From the NCBI RefSeq assembly GCF_003334315.1, contig NZ_QOWR01000085.1: a stretch of 11,574 nucleotides of DNA; one strand, 5' to 3'. This document shows, piece by piece, positions 1,698-11,574 of the stretch. The notes below the pieces were generated by a model. The model had not been told where the DNA came from. It did no database searches and saw only the letters and a list, made by a program, of their open reading frames with translations. The stretch is from Escherichia coli (GTDB lineage: Bacteria > Pseudomonadota > Gammaproteobacteria > Enterobacterales > Enterobacteriaceae). How positions within the stretch are numbered: position 1 is the stretch's first letter; every line of letters starts with the position of its first letter. A program made the position numbers and the translations under genes.

Positions 1698-2229
1698 GGG
1701 CTGGTTTATTGTATGCCAAATGATTATTAAAAAGGTTGTGTTAATAACAAAATCCGAAATAATATGCCTGCATATTTTTATCTTGCTTATATTCTGCATA
1801 TTGTGCATAGCAGGCTCATCCCTGCAATCAAAACTGTATGATGAGTATTTTTTGTTTTCCTTTTTTCCAGTCATCTGATGATGACCTGCTTCTTTTTAAT
1901 CCGGATCGACATCAGTTTTTTAAGATAATTCCTGCGAGTTATATGCATAAATACCACAAACTCCGCATTTTATGTGGTTGGGAGTTGCCGGGCGCGCAGT
2001 GAGTTTGCTAAGAAAACTCCTGCATGGTGAATCCCCCTGTGCGGTGGGGTGATACCATTAACCTTTTCTGTCGCCGACAGGTATCACGAACATTTTGTTC
2101 ACCGGGAGGCACCCGGCACCATGCACTTCAATAGATTCTCTCCACATTATGGATATTCTTTCAGAATATCCCACGCAGACTTTGTGTAAATGTTAACAAA
2201 TGTGCGTTTTATTTGATCTGATTCGCTGT

Positions 2230-2259
2230 TTGAGCGTCCAAAACAACGGTATATATAAT
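2230..2259 (+). promoter_or_regulatory. Candidate sigma-70 promoter for the lipoprotein genes
   Basis: TTGAGC(2230-2235)-N18-TATAAT(2254-2259), about 30 nt upstream of the ATG at 2289, which has the RBS GAGGAAAAATG. Confidence 0.4.
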
Positions 2260-2288
2260 CCTTTACTATATGACATATGTGAGGAAAA

Positions 2289-2717
2289 ATGGGTTTTCGT
2301 AGCGCATCAATTCTTACGTTGATTATTAGTGGGATTATTATCGGGTGCACTGATGCTGTATCGACAAATTATCATGACCGTACATCATATTACTCCGATA
2401 AAGCAATAGAGACACAGTATGTGAGTTCATCTGAACGTACTTCTGATGTTAGTGAGGATATCCGTCTGTATGCCCATCAAATCAAGAGCGCCATCGAAAA
2501 ACAGTTCGGGGATGCGAGTAAGTATTCAGGAAAAGAGTGTACACTGAGAATGCATATGGCCCCGAATGGCCTTCTACTGGAGGTTAAAAGAGAAAGTGGA
2601 GACCTCGATTTATGTCGTGAAGCGATGAATGCGATAAAGAATGCTGATATACCTGCCCCCCCTTCGCCGGAAGTATATAAAGTATTTCAAAATGGGGTGC
2701 TGGATTTTAAACCCTGA
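2289..2717 (+). CDS. Lipoprotein with TolA C-terminal (domain III)-like domain, copy 1
   Basis: 142-aa ORF with a strong RBS. The signal peptide ends in the lipobox IIIG|C (Cys20, Thr at +2), followed by an S/T/Y-rich linker. The C-terminal ~82 aa, YAHQIKSAIEKQFGDASKYSGKECTLRMHMAPNGLLLEVK...PPSPEVYKVFQNGVLDFKP, is nearly colinear with the C-terminus of E. coli TolA as I remember it, including the C-x24-C pair. Confidence 0.85.
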   Translation: MGFRSASILTLIISGIIIGCTDAVSTNYHDRTSYYSDKAIETQYVSSSERTSDVSEDIRLYAHQIKSAIEKQFGDASKYSGKECTLRMHMAPNGLLLEVKRESGDLDLCREAMNAIKNADIPAPPSPEVYKVFQNGVLDFKP

Positions 2718-2867
2718 TATTTATTGTTTTGTAATAAACGGTTTCGGCTTAGGTTTGTTCTGACACAGCTACGGCACTGAGCTAAATTTAGCGGATAGTC
2801 AGCTCTGAGCCAGTGGCGGACGTAACAACTACTATTGCTGAGATTTTAATGGATTGAGGAGCAAGAA

Positions 2868-3263
2868 GTGGGATTAAAGAAAATCGTTATGTTGACTTTT
2901 TGGGGCGGTTTTGTTGCGGGATGCACACCTTTACACCCTTCAGATTGCCACAAAACTACTGCTACAGGTAGTTGCAGTTCAGGACGCTGGGATGATCAGG
3001 ATGAATGGGGGGCGCAAGCGCGGGGAATCAGAGCTGCAATTAATGCCAAACTTGATGAGCCGCATAACTGGAAAGGGAAAAAATGCAGGTTGCATATGGA
3101 ATTCTCTCAGGATGGCACGGCGTTAAAAATATCTACCAGTAACGGTGATAAAGCCTATTGCGAAGCGATAAAGTCCGCAGCTCATAAAGCCAAATTTCCG
3201 GCCTTCAACAATCCGGAAGTCTACAGAGATTTTCAGAAATCTGGCTTTGACATGCGAGGTTAG
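2868..3263 (+). CDS. Lipoprotein with TolA domain III-like domain, copy 2 (diverged paralogue)
   Basis: 131-aa ORF with a GTG start, 6 nt after the GAGGAG RBS. The signal peptide MGLKKIVMLTFWGGFVAG|C has its lipobox Cys at residue 19. The C-terminal ~80 aa aligns without gaps to copy 1 (about one third identical by hand), sharing GK.C.L.M, the C-x24-C spacing and PEVY..FQ. Confidence 0.8.
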   Translation: MGLKKIVMLTFWGGFVAGCTPLHPSDCHKTTATGSCSSGRWDDQDEWGAQARGIRAAINAKLDEPHNWKGKKCRLHMEFSQDGTALKISTSNGDKAYCEAIKSAAHKAKFPAFNNPEVYRDFQKSGFDMRG

Positions 3264-3388
3264 CTCTTCAATTACTATATCTCATTCATAGCAAACTGAC
3301 AGATTTGATGATGTTCTATATACGAAACCTGTGATGTCAAGTCTGAGCTAATACAAATAAACATAATATCAGAGAAATACATTTTATT

Positions 3389-3412
3389 AGCTCGCTACGG
3401 CGAGCTTTTTAT
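3389..3412 (+). terminator. Rho-independent terminator closing the lipoprotein unit
   Basis: AGCTCGC-tacg-GCGAGCT, a perfect 7-bp stem, followed by TTTTTAT. Confidence 0.75.
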
Positions 3413-3514
3413 ATTGCATCGTCTCCAGCATATATATCAATTAAGGCTCTGATTGATGTGTCTGAAAGCCTACACATAATAACTATGCCATCCGTTCCGT
3501 GCGGAGGTGAGGCT

Positions 3515-3730
3515 ATGAAATCCATGGACAAAATTTCAACAGGCATTGCCTACGGCACCTCCGCAGGCAGTGCTGGCTACTGGTTTTTACAGTTGCTCGA
3601 TAGAGTAACTCCGTCACAGTGGGCTGCAATCGGTGTGCTGGGTAGTCTGGTATTTGGCCTGCTGACGTACCTGACAAACCTTTATTTCAAGATTAAAGAA
3701 GATAAGCGCAAGGCTGCGAGAGGTGAATAA
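3515..3730 (+). CDS. S: Class II holin (pinholin), phage 21 S-type, with dual-start motif
   Basis: 71 aa, [26 protein letters not shown]...[15 protein letters not shown], almost identical to my memory of S21/EssD. The Met1-Lys2-Ser3-Met4 dual start gives the antiholin and holin forms. The RBS GGAGGTGAGG lies upstream. The tracker's GTG at 3458 is an unlikely start. Confidence 0.9.
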
Positions 3731-4227
3731 TGCCTCCATCATTACGAAAAGTCGTTGCCGCTGCTATTGGTGGCGGAGCAATTGCTATAGCATCAGTGTT
3801 AATCACTGGCCCAAGTGGTAACGATGGTCTGGAAGGTGTCAGCTACATACCATACAAAGATATTGTTGGTGTATGGACTGTATGTCACGGGCATACAGGA
3901 AAAGACATCATGCTCGGTAAAACGTATACCAAAGCAGAATGCAAAGCCCTCCTGAATAAAGACCTTGCCACGGTCGCCAGACAAATTAACCCGTACATCA
4001 AAGTCGATATACCGGAAACAACGCGCGGCGCTCTTTACTCATTCGTTTACAACGTGGGTGCTGGCAATTTCAGAACATCGACGCTTCTTCGCAAAATAAA
4101 CCAGGGCGATATCAAAGGCGCATGTGATCAGCTACGTCGCTGGACATATGCTGGCGGTAAGCAATGGAAAGGTCTCATGACTCGTCGTGAGATTGAGCGT
4201 GAAATCTGTTTGTGGGGTCAGCAATGA
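3730..4227 (+). CDS. R: SAR endolysin (GH24 lysozyme, phage 21 R-type)
   Basis: 165 aa. The N-terminal Gly/Ala-rich, weakly hydrophobic segment [20 protein letters not shown] is a signal-anchor-release domain. The catalytic pattern E-x8-D-x5-T is present in [16 protein letters not shown]. The start abuts the holin stop (TAATG). Confidence 0.9.
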
Positions 4228-4688: not shown

Positions 4689-4825
4689 AATCTTAACTAC
4701 AATATGATTCATTTTGATGATTGTTTCATAAGGAACAGTGAAGTAAGATCTAAGAGGAGTTAAATTTTATACAGTATAATCATAATATTGCAGCAAGGTG
4801 GTTATAATTGAAAGAATATTTAGAT

Positions 4826-6283
4826 ATGAATACATCTCATGTAAGAGTTGTTACTCATATGTGTGGGTTCCTGGTTTGGCTCTATAGTCTTTCAATGTTG
4901 CCACCAATGGTTGTAGCATTGTTTTATAAAGAAAAAAGCCTGTTCGTTTTCTTTATAACTTTCGTTATATTTTTTTGCATTGGTGGCGGAGCGTGGTATA
5001 CAACTAAGAAATCTGGCATTCAATTACGTACCCGTGATGGGTTTATTATAATTGTAATGTTTTGGATTTTGTTTTCTGTTATTAGTGCATTCCCTTTATG
5101 GATTGACTCAGAACTTAATTTAACGTTCATTGATGCTCTGTTTGAAGGGGTTTCTGGAATAACAACAACAGGAGCAACTGTAATTGATGATGTTAGTTCA
5201 TTACCTCGGGCATATTTGTACTATCGGTCACAGTTAAATTTTATAGGTGGTTTAGGAGTTATTGTTCTGGCGGTTGCTGTATTGCCATTATTGGGTATTG
5301 GTGGTGCAAAGCTTTATCAGTCAGAAATGCCGGGGCCATTTAAGGATGACAAACTCACTCCCCGCCTGGCCGATACGTCACGGACACTGTGGATAACTTA
5401 TTCTTTATTAGGTATTGCTTGTATTGTCTGTTATAGACTTGCAGGAATGCCTTTGTTTGATGCTATTTGTCACGGGATTTCCACAGTTTCGCTTGGTGGT
5501 TTCTCAACTCATAGCGAGAGTATCGGATATTTTAATAACTATTTGGTTGAGCTGGTGGCTGGTTCTTTTTCCCTGCTATCGGCTTTCAACTTCACTCTTT
5601 GGTATATTGTTATTAGCAGGAAAACGATAAAACCTTTAATCAGAGATATTGAACTTCGTTTCTTTCTGTTAATAGCCTTAGGGGTGATCATTGTTACCTC
5701 TTTCCAGGTCTGGCATATAGGTATGTATGACTTGCATGGAAGTTTTATTCATTCGTTTTTTCTTGCCAGCTCCATGCTCACTGATAATGGTTTAGCTACG
5801 CAGGATTATGCAAGTTGGCCCACGCACACGATAGTGTTTTTGCTGTTGTCAAGTTTCTTTGGGGGATGTATAGGTTCAACTTGTGGTGGAATTAAGTCAC
5901 TTCGATTTCTTATACTTTTCAAACAAAGCAAACACGAGATAAATCAGCTTTCTCATCCCAGAGCGTTGTTGAGTGTAAATGTAGGAGGGAAGATAGTTAC
6001 AGATCGTGTAATGAGGTCTGTATGGAGTTTCTTTTTTCTTTATACTCTCTTCACGGTGTTTTTTATACTGGTGTTAAATGGTATGGGATATGATTTTCTT
6101 ACATCATTTGCAACAGTGGCTGCATGTATTAATAATATGGGATTAGGTTTTGGGGCTACTGCATCGTCATTCGGAGTGCTTAATGACATTGCAAAATGTT
6201 TAATGTGCATAGCTATGATTCTTGGTCGCCTTGAAATTTATCCTGTTATTATATTGTTTTCAGGTTTTTTTTGGCGCTCCTAA
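4826..6283 (+). CDS. trkG: Trk-system potassium uptake membrane protein TrkG
   Basis: 485 aa from the ATG at 4826 (MNTSHVRVVTHMCGFLVWLYSL...), which I recognise as Rac-prophage TrkG. It is polytopic, with repeated selectivity-filter-like Gly motifs (TTTGAT, LGGFS, CGGIKS, NMGLGFG). Spot counts of three 60-nt lines at 4981-5160 gave 25-48% GC (mean about 37%), against 48% for one flank line (6601-6660). An upstream TTG at 4808 has a better RBS (AAGGTGG, 6-nt spacing) and would give 491 aa. Confidence 0.9.
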   Translation: MNTSHVRVVTHMCGFLVWLYSLSMLPPMVVALFYKEKSLFVFFITFVIFFCIGGGAWYTTKKSGIQLRTRDGFIIIVMFWILFSVISAFPLWIDSELNLTFIDALFEGVSGITTTGATVIDDVSSLPRAYLYYRSQLNFIGGLGVIVLAVAVLPLLGIGGAKLYQSEMPGPFKDDKLTPRLADTSRTLWITYSLLGIACIVCYRLAGMPLFDAICHGISTVSLGGFSTHSESIGYFNNYLVELVAGSFSLLSAFNFTLWYIVISRKTIKPLIRDIELRFFLLIALGVIIVTSFQVWHIGMYDLHGSFIHSFFLASSMLTDNGLATQDYASWPTHTIVFLLLSSFFGGCIGSTCGGIKSLRFLILFKQSKHEINQLSHPRALLSVNVGGKIVTDRVMRSVWSFFFLYTLFTVFFILVLNGMGYDFLTSFATVAACINNMGLGFGATASSFGVLNDIAKCLMCIAMILGRLEIYPVIILFSGFFWRS

Positions 6284-6420: not shown

Positions 6421-7212
6421 ATGAGCGAGAAATTAAAGATAGTCTATCGCCCATTACAAGAATTGTCACCGTATGCGCACAACGCCAGGACGCACAGCCC
6501 TGAGCAGGTGGCACAACTGGTAGAAAGTATTAAGCAATTCGGCTGGACTAATCCGGTGCTGATTGACGAAAAGGGCGAAATTATTGCGGGTCACGGTCGT
6601 GTTATGGCGGCTGAAATGCTCAAAATGGATTCTGTTCCGGTCATTGTTCTGTCTGGCCTGACGGATGAGCAGAAAAAGGCGTACCGCCTGGCAGATAATC
6701 GCCTGCCGATGAATGCTGGCTGGGATGAAGATCTGTTGCGGATGGAGCTGTCGGACCTAATCAATGCTGATTTTGATGTCTCCCTGACAGGCTTCATCCC
6801 GACAGAAATTGATGAACTGTTGACGGATGTTTTGCCCGGTACAGGAAATGAGGAGGAGCCGTATACGACGAAAATTGATACGCCTGTTTATGAGCCGTCG
6901 GGCGGTAAACCGGATATCAGTGAACTGTACGACGATACGAAAACTCAGGAGCTGATCAGCCGGATACGTTCGGCGTCCCTTGAGCCTGATATTGAGAAAT
7001 TCCTCCTGTGTGCGGCAGAACGTCACACGGTGTTTAATTTCAGCAGAATTGCGGACTATTACGCTCACGCCCCCTCTGAAATTCAGTGTTTTTTCGAGGA
7101 GTCGGCGCTGGTGATCATTGATTATCAGCAGGCTATTGAAAATGGATTTGTCCGGATGACGCAGCGCATGGTGGAGATCATGCATGGTGGTGAGGAGGAG
7201 GAATATGCGTGA
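6421..7212 (+). CDS. ParB N-terminal (ParB/Srx-like) domain protein with an uncharacterised acidic C-terminal domain
   Basis: 263 aa. The N-terminal ~95 aa (YRPLQELSPYAHNARTHSPEQVAQLVESIKQFGWTNPVLIDEKGEIIAGHGRVMAA) shows the ParB-N fold pattern, with a GHGR box where ParB has GERR. The linker GWDEDLL...DFDVSLTGF..EIDELL is as I recall it from phage and plasmid ParB-methyltransferase fusions, but no SAM-methyltransferase motifs follow. It is probably the full-length form of K-12 Rac ynaK (from memory). Confidence 0.75.
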   Translation: MSEKLKIVYRPLQELSPYAHNARTHSPEQVAQLVESIKQFGWTNPVLIDEKGEIIAGHGRVMAAEMLKMDSVPVIVLSGLTDEQKKAYRLADNRLPMNAGWDEDLLRMELSDLINADFDVSLTGFIPTEIDELLTDVLPGTGNEEEPYTTKIDTPVYEPSGGKPDISELYDDTKTQELISRIRSASLEPDIEKFLLCAAERHTVFNFSRIADYYAHAPSEIQCFFEESALVIIDYQQAIENGFVRMTQRMVEIMHGGEEEEYA

Positions 7213-8137
7213 TGATTTTTGCGCCTTTATTCTGACTCACGGGCGACCGGACAAAGTTCTGACTTACCGGACGTTGCGTCGTGCTGGCTATACCGGGAAA
7301 ATTTTTATCGTTGTTGATGATGAAGATAAGACACGGAATCAGTACATGGCTGAATTTGGTGAACAGGTGCTGGTGTTTTCCAAAGCCGATATCGCCAGTC
7401 GTTTTGACGAAGCCGATAATTTCTGTGACCGCCGCTCAATTTTTTACGCCCGTAATGCCTGTTTCGACCTGGCAAAACTGGTCGGGTGTAAATACTTCAT
7501 TCAGCTCGATGATGATTATCACGAGTTCCAGTTTCGGGTGGATCGCAACTATGACCAGGCCTATTTTCCGATAAGGAAACTGGATGCGATCCTTTCTGAA
7601 ATGCTGGCGTACTACGAATCAATACCTGCTCTTTCCATCGCTATGTCGCAGGGCGGGGATTTTCTTGGTGACAATGGCGGCCATGCTTCGTGGGTGAAAC
7701 GCAAGGCAATGAACAGCTTTATCTGTTCGGTTGATCGACCGTTCTCATTCATGGGGCGCATTAACGAGGATGTGAATACGTACACGAATCTCGGTCGCTG
7801 TGGTGAATTGTTTATGACGATCGGTGCTGTCCAGTTAGGGCAGAAACAGACGCAGAAAAACAGCGGCGGAATGACCGAGCTGTATCTGGATTCCGGAACC
7901 TACGTTAAAAGTTTTTACTCCGTCATGTATGCGCCGTCGTGCGTAAAAATCTCACTGATGGGTGCCAGCCATAAACGCATTCACCATCAGGTCACCTGGA
8001 ACAACGCTGCAGTAAAAATCCTTCACGAAAAATACAGGAAGAAGACACCCTGCATATCAATGGGGGTGACAAATGATTCCGTATTCGAAAGTCGAGTCTC
8101 TGGCAGCGTGCCGGATGACTGCACAACAAATCGCTGA
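7205..8137 (+). CDS. GT-A fold (GT2-like) glycosyltransferase-like protein, soluble
   Basis: The start is taken at the ATG at 7205 (RBS GAGGAGGAGGAAT), which overlaps the ParB-like stop (ATGCGTGA). Motifs occur in GT-A order: FILTHGRPD, IFIVVDDED, ARNACFDLAKLVGCKYFIQLDDDY (DxD) and NEDVNTY. No TM segment is present. The last ~20 codons overlap the next ORF. Confidence 0.6.
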   Translation: MRDDFCAFILTHGRPDKVLTYRTLRRAGYTGKIFIVVDDEDKTRNQYMAEFGEQVLVFSKADIASRFDEADNFCDRRSIFYARNACFDLAKLVGCKYFIQLDDDYHEFQFRVDRNYDQAYFPIRKLDAILSEMLAYYESIPALSIAMSQGGDFLGDNGGHASWVKRKAMNSFICSVDRPFSFMGRINEDVNTYTNLGRCGELFMTIGAVQLGQKQTQKNSGGMTELYLDSGTYVKSFYSVMYAPSCVKISLMGASHKRIHHQVTWNNAAVKILHEKYRKKTPCISMGVTNDSVFESRVSGSVPDDCTTNR

Positions 8138-10706: not shown

Positions 10707-11126
10707 ATGGCTGATATATCAACACCCAACCTCGACTATAACGATATGCTGGAGGCGTGGGATATTAACGACGCACTGATGGGCGGTACGCTTGAAATGC
10801 GCAGGCAGGGGGAAAATTATCTCCCAAAATGGCCTAACGAAGATGAAGACGCTTATAAAAAACGCCTGTCTGTGGCTACGCTACTTCCTGTGTATGAAGA
10901 AAGCATCAAGCAAAATATTGGGCGCATATTTGCAGAGCCGACAGTATTGAGTGAGGAAACGCCGGCAAAAATCAGGGAATATGCAGAAAATATCGACATG
11001 GAGGGGAGCCGACTGGATGTGTGGGCGCAGCAATTTTTCAGCCTCGCATTTCAGTATGGTGTGGCACATGCGCTGGTGGACTACCCACGAACGGATATGA
11101 AAGAGATTCGTACAAAAGCCGGGTAA
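10707..11126 (+). pseudogene. Portal protein gene (DUF4055-like N-terminus), truncated by IS1 insertion
   Basis: The ORF starts 3 nt after TerL. Its N-terminal pattern (G..YLPKWPNE....Y..RL..A.L...YE.....IGRIF..P) resembles DUF4055-type portals as recalled. Only 139 codons remain, and the stop TAA (11124-11126) lies inside the IS1 terminal repeat GGTAATG. Native sequence ends at 11121. Confidence 0.6.
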
Positions 11127-11574
11127 TGACTCCAACTTATTGATAGTGTTTTATGTTCAGATAATGCCCGATGACTTTGTCATGCAGCTCCACCGATTTT
11201 GAGAACGACAGCGACTTCCGTCCCAGCCGTGCCAGGTGCTGCCTCAGATTCAGGTTATGCCGCTCAATTCGCTGCGTATATCGCTTGCTGATTACGTGCA
11301 GCTTTCCCTTCAGGCGGGATTCATACAGCGGCCAGCCATCCGTCATCCATATCACCACGTCAAAGGGTGACAGCAGGCTCATAAGACGCCCCAGCGTCGC
11401 CATAGTGCGTTCACCGAATACGTGCGCAACAACCGTCTTCCGGAGACTGTCATACGCGTAAAACAGCCAGCGCTGGCGCGATTTAGCCCCGACATAGCCC
11501 CACTGTTCGTCCATTTCCGCGCAGACGATGACGTCACTGCCCGGCTGTATGCGCGAGGTTACCGACTGCGGCCT
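11122..11574 (-). mobile_element. IS1 insertion sequence, partial (continues past the right edge)
   Basis: From 11122 the sequence matches IS1 read from its insB-proximal end (GGTAATGACTCCAACTTATTGATAGTGTTTTATGTTCAGATAATGCCCGATGAC...), as I remember it. The 23-bp terminal inverted repeat is at 11122-11144. The window ends just before the A6C frameshift site. Confidence 0.95.
11137..11574 (-). CDS. insB: IS1 transposase InsB reading frame (C-terminal 145 codons; 5' end outside the window)
   Basis: The reverse-strand translation reads [42 protein letters not shown]...HYLNIKHYQ*, identical to my memory of InsB. The frame stays open to the window edge. Confidence 0.9.

Follow-up and report, generated by a model that had tools for sequence, protein, structure and literature searches.

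The window analysed here is a stretch of 11,574 nucleotides from Escherichia coli (contig NZ_QOWR01000085.1, assembly GCF_003334315.1) and belongs to the late region of a defective lambdoid prophage of the Rac type. Our subject is a pair of adjacent open reading frames (ORFs) within it, ORF1 and ORF2, which an earlier note, made from the sequence alone, had described as lipoproteins copying domain III of TolA (TolA-III) and as a candidate decoy against colicins and filamentous phages. Both ORFs are present, at 2289-2717 and 2868-3263, with the lipobox cysteines (Cys20 and Cys19) and the threonine at +2 that the note had pointed out. Their parts are the following.

2289-2717, + strand: ORF1, ATG start, 142 amino acids (aa), predicted outer-membrane lipoprotein
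2289-2348, + strand: ORF1 signal peptide and lipobox, with the Cys20 codon at 2346-2348
2349-2438, + strand: ORF1 disordered linker
2439-2714, + strand: ORF1 TolA domain III
2868-3263, + strand: ORF2, GTG start, 131 aa, predicted outer-membrane lipoprotein
2868-2924, + strand: ORF2 signal peptide and lipobox, with the Cys19 codon at 2922-2924
2925-2999, + strand: ORF2 conserved linker with a C-x8-C loop, residues 20-44
3000-3260, + strand: ORF2 TolA domain III

Each gene is preceded by a ribosome-binding site (RBS; GAGGA at 2281-2285 for ORF1 and GAGGAG at 2856-2861 for ORF2), and each product starts with a basic n-region, a hydrophobic core and a canonical lipobox. The N-terminus of ORF1 reads MGFRSASILTLIISGIIIGC followed by TD, with the lipobox IIGC, and that of ORF2 reads MGLKKIVMLTFWGGFVAGC followed by TP, with the lipobox VAGC. 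The C-terminal domains align without gaps at 25 of 80 positions (31%), close to the one third estimated by hand in the note. They also share the two signatures named there, a PEVY..FQ motif (PEVYKVFQ in ORF1, PEVYRDFQ in ORF2) and a C-x24-C spacing, which is found in TolA as well (Cys84/Cys109 in ORF1, Cys73/Cys98 in ORF2, Cys363/Cys388 in TolA); the Cys pairs of both proteins are invariant in alignment A1. Compared in the same gapless way, ORF1 is identical to E. coli TolA 334-421 at 52 of 88 positions (59%), in line with the claim of more than half, and ORF2 is identical to TolA at 27 of 80 (34%). The TolA sequence that the note had used for this comparison agrees with the chains in the Protein Data Bank (PDB). 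The unit had also been called AT-rich; its GC content is lower than that of the window, but the difference is mild (41.8% versus 45.8%, with 49% in the lysis genes).

Stand-alone lipoproteins carrying TolA domain III

Profile, sequence and structure comparisons all support TolA-III homology and a TolA-III fold for both proteins. Pfam PF06519 (TolA_C) matches ORF1 with an E-value of 2.4e-23 (82.6 bits) and ORF2 with 1.3e-14 (54.6 bits), both above the curated gathering score of 25. In a phmmer search against all PDB chains, the best E-values were 5e-28 for ORF1 and 5e-9 for ORF2, both to E. coli TolA-III, and the first-ranked chains were 1S62, 3QDP, 2X9A, 1TOL and those of recent full Tol complexes. 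AlphaFold2 (AF2) models, built from an input alignment of 29 sequences, have pLDDT values above 90 for residues 51-142 of ORF1 and 45-131 of ORF2, with all preceding residues below 50, and their secondary-structure elements follow the order a1, short helix, b1, b2, a2, a3, b3. When these models were compared with the PDB using Foldseek, TolA-III structures were the top nine for each (TMt 0.85-0.96, root mean square deviation [rmsd] 0.6-1.6 Å), including 2X9A_B for ORF1 (TMt 0.96, rmsd 0.6 Å) and 3QDP for ORF2 (TMt 0.92, rmsd 1.0 Å); TonB C-terminal domains rank after them with much weaker scores.

Domains I and II of TolA are absent from both proteins. The full-length TolA models (TIGR02794 and NF007065) match through their last ~95 positions only, covering profile positions 265-362 and 293-386. 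Neither protein has the inner-membrane anchor of domain I, the N-terminus being a lipoprotein signal peptide, and there is no long Ala/Lys/Glu-rich helical domain II, as just 25-30 aa of low-confidence linker precede the domain. ORF1 and ORF2 are each shown to consist of a lipoprotein signal peptide, a flexible linker of that length and a complete TolA domain III. Their sequence and predicted fold place them in the TolA_C domain family, yet they are not TolA.

The confinement of the matches to the end of TolA explains two apparent artefacts in the RefSeq record. The Prokaryotic Genome Annotation Pipeline (PGAP) presents ORF1 (window 2457-2717; L001 12258-12518) as a tolA pseudogene, "incomplete; missing N-terminus", because TIGR02794, a model of full-length TolA, exceeds its cutoff on the C-terminal domain alone. 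It also starts ORF2 at Met8 (window 2889-3263; L001 12690-13064), cutting off the basic n-region. Both calls look wrong. In practice, the RefSeq record examined gives ORF1 a wrong label, that of a tolA pseudogene, and the mislabelling is probably repeated in other genomes with the same allele. The names attached to ORF1 and ORF2 ("TolA", "TolA family", "colicin import membrane protein") are all automatic. Pipelines already recognise the proteins as TolA_C-type, and we found no description of the stand-alone lipoprotein architecture.

The lipoprotein signals proposed for the pair are backed by diverged homologues. The lipobox is retained in all 120 listed ORF2-type homologues, in which the +2 residue is A, S, T, V, G or C (n=3) and never Asp. 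For ORF1, a diverged allele (P0028) is 66% identical with equal length and architecture, and nucleotide homology between the two starts only at codon 19 (window 2343), so the signal peptides are unrelated, though each ends in a lipobox. Lipoboxes are conserved even where the signal peptide differs, and lipoprotein export of the pair looks selected. Under the +2 rule, Asp at this position leads to inner-membrane retention and the Lol system sorts other lipoproteins outward; by this rule, ORF1 and ORF2 are predicted to sit in the inner leaflet of the outer membrane. The ratio of nonsynonymous to synonymous substitutions (dN/dS) is 0.11/0.46 = 0.24 for the ORF1 domain compared with the P0028 allele, and the values for mature ORF2 are 0.09 (IncK plasmid copy), 0.04 (Enterobacter chromosomal copy) and 0.05 (Citrobacter copy). 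The exact ORF1 protein occurs on at least 1000 public contigs, and 775 of 5426 complete E. coli genomes contain the 1.2-kb region at 99% identity or more. Comparative sequence data of this kind show both genes to be real and under purifying selection.

Prophage setting and mobility of the cassette

Along the window come genes for a NinB-like protein (DUF1367), a YbcO nuclease and the Q-like antiterminator, then a 1-kb spacer, ORF1, ORF2, holin, endolysin, Rz/Rz1 and trkG, and the chromosomal RefSeq copy adjoins trkG, ynaK, ydfK, uspF, ompN and nifJ. The Q-like gene and the holin bracket the pair, as the note had seen. The features around it are listed below.

702-1244, + strand: Q-like late-gene antiterminator (DUF1133, E 2.5e-107; Phage_antitermQ, 26.1 bits; PHROG 753, E 2e-79)
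1672-1691 and 1870-1885: terminator-like hairpins in the 1-kb spacer upstream of ORF1
1992-2178, + strand: match to the STnc100 family of small RNAs (Rfam RF02076, 86.6 bits with a gathering score of 47, E 6.7e-18, full model length)
2230-2259, + strand: sigma-70 promoter-like element, TTGAGC-18 nt-TATAAT, 10 of 12 consensus matches
3389-3416, + strand: intrinsic-terminator-like hairpin and T-run, AGCTCGCTACGGCGAGCT then TTTTATATTG, with a 7-bp stem that includes 5 GC pairs
3515-3730, + strand: P21-type holin (essD-like; Pfam Phage_holin_2_1, E 2e-35), the 3' end of the cassette described below

A promoter-like and a terminator-like element flank the unit, the latter as a clean hairpin with its T-run and the former as a consensus match only. 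The scanned region holds 11 promoter-like sites versus 6.5 ± 2.5 in shuffled sequences, which is not a significant enrichment. No terminator is predicted between ORF1 and ORF2, and the two genes are therefore probably co-transcribed. The endolysin downstream has a hydrophobic N-terminus that resembles, by eye, a signal-anchor-release (SAR) sequence, and Rz/Rz1 form a complete spanin pair encoded in the window. A tRNA search found no tRNA genes in the window.

The segment that holds the pair occurs on different backbones. About half of the best-matching 80 prophage-derived viral contigs carry the backbone of the window, and ~40 share only 2100 to ~3730, that is, the pair and the holin; homology limited to this segment in different backbones indicates that the unit moves as a cassette. 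At the 3' side, homology in other backbones stops at ~3720-3730. At the 5' side it starts at ~2001-2100, inside or at the start of the STnc100 match, whose 3' part falls within the mobile cassette, so this match may represent a late-promoter leader or a terminated transcript of this phage type. The phage record mEp460_ev081 shares 2001-3731 downstream of a different Q.

The idea that the pair occupies a moron slot is strengthened by these prophages with different flanks and by others that hold a lone ORF1-type gene among different neighbours. In 136 further genomes, ORF1-type alleles are found by themselves in other lambdoid prophages. One such gene lies between an AraC-like gene and nanS-p/holin, and another, in a prophage of O113:H21 Shiga toxin-producing E. 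coli (L134 6561-7429), immediately follows tRNA-Ile and tRNA-Arg and is itself followed by nanS-p and the holin. We take the site after these two tRNA genes to be the position of stx (stxAB) in Stx phages.

Other parts of the prophage were recorded alongside. The potassium transporter gene trkG (4808-6283, + strand, 37.8% GC), between Rz/Rz1 and a ParB-like gene, looks like further cargo of the same prophage, with a far higher AT content. A gene for a ParB_N-domain protein (6421-7212, + strand) overlaps one for a TET-associated glycosyltransferase (7184-8137, + strand; PF20691, E 8e-35), and these two genes (6421-8137), flanked by trkG and the terminase genes, appear to be what is left of a phage DNA hypermodification module. 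A portal-like ORF (10707-11126) is truncated by IS1 (InsB-like ORF at 11137-11514, minus strand), and in the RefSeq copy IS3 also splits the ParB-like gene. The prophage is defective, and the TolA-III pair is nevertheless intact.

Two lineages and their relatives on mobile elements

The earlier note had taken the two genes for diverged copies of each other, and this part of its description did not hold. With 59% identity to TolA and 31% to ORF2, ORF1 is nearer to TolA, and ORF2 belongs to a wide family of its own; a tandem duplication was therefore rejected, and the pair is better explained by two separate acquisitions. Among the representatives, no other full-length TolA is nearer to ORF1 than that of E. 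coli. The tandem arrangement is confined to Escherichia and Shigella.

The ORF2 lineage is an old, strongly constrained family of enterobacterial lipoproteins. It is found in representative genomes of 33 species, all Enterobacterales except for two metagenome bins otherwise labelled, and its genera include Enterobacter, Klebsiella, Citrobacter, Leclercia, Lelliottia, Raoultella, Kluyvera, Pantoea, Serratia and Rouxiella. The chromosomal genes of this type are solitary, without an ORF1 partner and without the Q-like or lysis genes of the window nearby, and nucleotide homology between them and the window is restricted to 2831-3264, that is, the gene and its RBS. Their positions vary. A btuE-like neighbour was found in just 8 of 40 loci, and a core gene with fixed synteny was rejected on that ground. 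The linker of this clade contains a C-x8-C loop (Cys27, Cys36), retained even in distant relatives, and an acidic, Trp-rich RWDDQDEWG motif. It is constrained to the same degree as the folded domain, has low AF2 confidence and may be a second binding element. When conservation in the family was mapped by element, all elements were about equally conserved, with no surface-specific signal. A kinship between the linker (SSGRWDDQDEWG) and the TolB boxes of colicins (DGSGW...W) was considered and dropped, as spacing and key residues differ by eye.

Relatives of the pair are also widespread on plasmids. Searched with a profile, 1.84 billion representative proteins yielded 602 matches, and the architecture was read in the top 150. 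Among these, 79 proteins have 105-170 aa, and 59 of the 79 begin with Met, a signal peptide and a lipobox, with a few carrying ordinary signal peptides; stand-alone TolA-III lipoproteins are thus a broad architecture. ORF2-type genes with 87% nucleotide identity are present on ~600 Escherichia and Shigella plasmids. On I-complex conjugative plasmids (IncI1/B/O and IncK2/Z), which encode pili (MPF_I), the gene starts 68 nt past the relaxase in the same orientation (L003 3444-3875; L130, L131 and L132, each 2995-3426), an arrangement that suggests co-transcription with the oriT/relaxase operon. On IncF plasmids of the pO157 type, its neighbours are the hok/psi leading region on one side and toxB on the other. 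ABC exporters were seen 1-3 kb from ORF2-type genes in three unrelated contexts (L132 5343-6429; L048 7650-9404; L049 7622-9721), at least two of the three with a bacteriocin-type peptidase domain; this could be chance.

More distant TolA-C genes were found on ~690 further plasmids, mostly from Klebsiella. In 379 records of a mobilisable ColRNAI plasmid of 10-12 kb, a TolA-C lipoprotein gene stands next to a cloacin/colicin-E3-type operon, whose bacteriocin has a Cloacin T-domain, an E2 R-domain and a cytotoxic rRNase domain and is accompanied by immunity and lysis genes. The lipoprotein has 123 aa, starts with MRLIPFILLALCSPLLLTAC followed by K, matches PF06519 at E 2e-24 and is 39% identical to ORF1 over 92 residues. 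Its gene overlaps one that encodes a TonB-C protein of 121 aa (PF03544, E 9e-11), exported by an ordinary Sec signal peptide, as seen at two Klebsiella ColRNAI loci (L138 5616-6349; L141 6127-6860). The presence of TolA-C and TonB-C on one plasmid means that both bacteriocin import hubs are copied side by side. CloDF13 was considered as a carrier of this TolA/TonB pair and rejected, its slot being filled by proteins K and L. On a Klebsiella IncF plasmid (L139 4217-5246), a thioredoxin-fold (DsbA/TraF-like) gene comes immediately before a gene for a TolA-C lipoprotein of 144 aa.

Possible functions and relation to known systems

We tentatively favour, at a little under an even chance, the view that ORF1 and ORF2 are motor-less TolA mimics that would intercept Tol-dependent colicins or filamentous phages. 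The TolA-III domain would hang just beneath the outer membrane, where native TolA-III meets TolB and where invaders would first appear. Lacking domains I and II, it could draw no energy from TolQ-TolR and could only compete with TolA for ligands, so that a ligand caught by β-strand augmentation would be held unproductively. As co-receptor decoys, the two proteins would intercept the N1 domain of g3p/pIII in the case of pilus-specific filamentous phages and the translocation domain in that of group A colicins and cloacins, and the lysogen would thereby be tolerant to Tol-dependent invaders. ORF1 would be the close TolA mimic, and ORF2, from an older and separate lineage, would probably have a different ligand range. 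The pair would probably be transcribed from its own promoter in the lysogen, with Q-dependent read-through in addition after induction. Periplasmic TolA-III reportedly renders E. coli both colicin-tolerant and leaky, by way of competition (a result attributed to Levengood-Freyermuth, 1993).

TolA-III is the tip domain of TolA, and both colicins and filamentous phages depend on binding it for their entry. The g3p N1 domain, colicin N and the TolB N-terminus bind the β3 strand and hydrophobic cavity by strand augmentation, and colicin A (ColA) binds β2 on the opposite face (PMC7391070; PMC3365938). The g3p of the I-pilus phage IF1 has been crystallised with TolA-III (PDB 2X9A). At the residues used by g3p N1, colicin N and TolB, ORF1 retains 4 of 6 positions in β3 and 6 of 9 at the C-terminus. 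The affinity of ColA for TolA-III is ~1.3 µM (PMC3365938), and that of TolA for TolB is given as 4 µM by surface plasmon resonance (SPR; PMC2707214) and as 40-200 µM in a review (PMC7391070). With the review values, a tethered decoy would favour the capture of colicin A over that of the host ligand. Since the retention of contact residues differs between ORF1 and ORF2, they are unlikely to share a ligand range. Three settings would fit a protective decoy, namely a moron in a lysogen, plasmids that make the pili used by TolA-dependent filamentous phages, and a bacteriocin plasmid with copies of both import hubs. The plasmid contexts make a decoy or exclusion function more plausible, as circumstantial evidence.

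Several observations weigh against interception. TolA Lys368 partners Tyr58 of ColA, the sole ColA aromatic whose mutation abolished binding (PMC3365938), and it is replaced by His in ORF1, where 4 of 9 ColA contacts are identical with conservative changes elsewhere, and by Glu in ORF2, where 2 of 9 are identical. With only 1 of 6 β3 positions matched and 34% identity, ORF2 is not a faithful TolA mimic. Moreover, at least 30 Enterobacterales species have an ORF2-type gene on its own in the chromosome, at varied positions outside phages, and these genes evolve like housekeeping genes, which an endogenous ligand fits equally well. The pair is present in just one of 50,697 sequenced phage genomes (mEp460_ev081, an evolved laboratory phage record), so its main place is in resident prophages, which are often defective. 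Against single-hit toxins, a reversible decoy protects only if it is abundant, and at 2230-2259 the promoter is no more than a consensus match. A PADLOC search matched neither protein to any catalogued defence family at E-values up to 1, and a literature search found no functional study of these proteins. In one paper, ciprofloxacin induction seemed to involve a prophage "TolA" (EDL933_2012); this lead was dropped, as the supplement of that paper lists the gene as encoding a tail fibre protein.

An alternative partner for the same fold is the host itself, and modulation of Tol-Pal is a role to which we give a low probability. The ligand would be the TolB N-terminus, held at the outer membrane without force so that Pal mobilisation is tuned; the envelope might thereby be loosened late in infection, to the benefit of vesiculation or of lysis at the outer membrane, or else its robustness in the lysogen might be altered. 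TolB uses the same β3 site as g3p (PMC7391070), and ORF1 retains this strand; in addition, PMC2689190 cites Wan & Baneyx 1998 for permeabilisation of the outer membrane by overproduced periplasmic TolA-III. The pair lies directly upstream of the holin, the SAR-type endolysin and Rz/Rz1, travels with the holin as a cassette and would be made together with the lysis proteins by Q-dependent read-through. However, the spanin pair in the window is already complete, homologues on conjugative plasmids, bacteriocin plasmids and chromosomes have no lysis cassette nearby, and a gene retained in 775 genomes within a defective prophage would come at a cost if it made the envelope leaky. The TolA-TolB affinity in the review is also weaker than that of ColA, although the SPR study gives 4 µM. 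Lysis-aid or envelope-tuning roles explain the position in the prophage, but not the plasmid and chromosomal homologues.

In another reading, the TolA-III/TonB-C fold would be a general-purpose module for strand augmentation, held at the outer membrane by a tether. On this account, which we consider rather unlikely, the partner would be an endogenous envelope protein, for instance an outer-membrane protein or a periplasmic enzyme, and mobile elements would have taken up ORF2 especially for a fitness effect unrelated to colicins or phages. The wide distribution of solitary, chromosomal ORF2-type genes under very strong purifying selection argues for it, as do the poor retention of known TolA ligand contacts in ORF2, the thioredoxin-fold gene before the lipoprotein gene on the Klebsiella IncF plasmid, and the linker, whose domain-like conservation suggests a specific partner. 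Given this conservation, an endogenous ligand is a serious possibility for ORF2. For ORF1, at 59% identity to TolA-III with the binding strand intact, it is hard to see how TolA ligands would be avoided; furthermore, repeated capture by phages, pilus plasmids and a bacteriocin plasmid with a TonB-C copy points to import pathways, and chromosomal positions differ between species as they do for accessory genes. Finally, the RefSeq label implies that the genes are captured tolA fragments in decay, a reading that the PGAP remark on the missing N-terminus of ORF1 and the defective state of the prophage (IS elements, truncated portal gene) would favour. We give it hardly any credence and consider it close to refuted, because the frames are intact with good RBSs, the proteins have acquired signal peptides with lipoboxes that TolA is without, dN/dS is 0.04-0.24, ORF1 and the pair are as widely conserved as described above, and the pseudogene call is traceable to the TIGR02794 cutoff.

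Returning to interception, a broader version of it is conceivable but rather doubtful. The proteins would be members of a class of immunity factors of mobile elements that is widespread and unrecognised, periplasmic co-receptor decoys made of motor-less C-domains of TolA (on some plasmids of TonB), tethered beneath the outer membrane or released into the periplasm and directed against Tol- or Ton-dependent bacteriocins and pilus-specific phages. In such a class, the I-complex copy, in the relaxase operon, would shield piliated donors, the TolA/TonB pair of the cloacin plasmid would cross-protect broadly, and the prophage pair would cover different ligand sets.

Compared with known systems, ORF1 and ORF2 share fold, element order and disulfide spacing with E. 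coli TolA-III (1TOL, 1S62, 2X9A, 3QDP/3QDR) and differ from TolA in the absence of domains I and II, in a predicted lipid anchor in the outer instead of the inner membrane and in their location on mobile elements. Engineered periplasmic TolA-III (Levengood-Freyermuth 1993; Wan & Baneyx 1998) is likewise detached from its motor, but it is soluble, overproduced and artificial, whereas ORF1 and ORF2 are natural, predicted to be lipid-tethered and diverged from TolA. The pair on the Klebsiella ColRNAI plasmid has the same combination of signal, lipobox and TolA-III and the same tandem import-hub domains on a mobile element. Its partner gene, however, encodes a TonB-C protein with an ordinary signal peptide and not a second TolA-III, and unlike the prophage, that plasmid itself makes a cloacin/colicin-E3-type bacteriocin. 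Such bacteriocins are, we assume, of the Tol-dependent class.

The late-region position has its own precedents. Lambdoid phages carry morons such as stxAB in Stx phages and bor/lom in lambda. The pair resembles them as cargo between Q/pR' and the lysis genes with a terminator-like hairpin and a candidate promoter, and differs from them in that its cargo is a mimic of a host protein and not a toxin or serum-resistance factor. Among exclusion factors, Cor (phi80/N15), Llp (T5) and TraT (F) are lipoproteins that inactivate or mask the outer-membrane receptors FhuA and OmpA. ORF1 and ORF2 are, like these, small lipoproteins of resident mobile elements in an accessory or moron position, for which a block of competitors is proposed here; unlike them, they would act by periplasmic co-receptor mimicry, and there is no sequence relationship.

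If the pair does intercept Tol-dependent invaders, about 1 in 7 sequenced E. coli strains would carry a built-in factor that modifies how sensitive the cell is to group A colicins and filamentous phages, and so would many clinical Klebsiella, Shigella and enterohaemorrhagic E. coli plasmids. This would bear on bacteriocin and phage therapeutics, on hosts for phage display and on how pilus plasmids evade the cost of male-specific phages, and it would represent a new principle of entry exclusion, in which a periplasmic co-receptor is mimicked instead of a surface receptor being masked. Even if the ligand is TolB, these natural lipid-anchored TolA-III domains would be ready-made probes of Tol-Pal force transduction.

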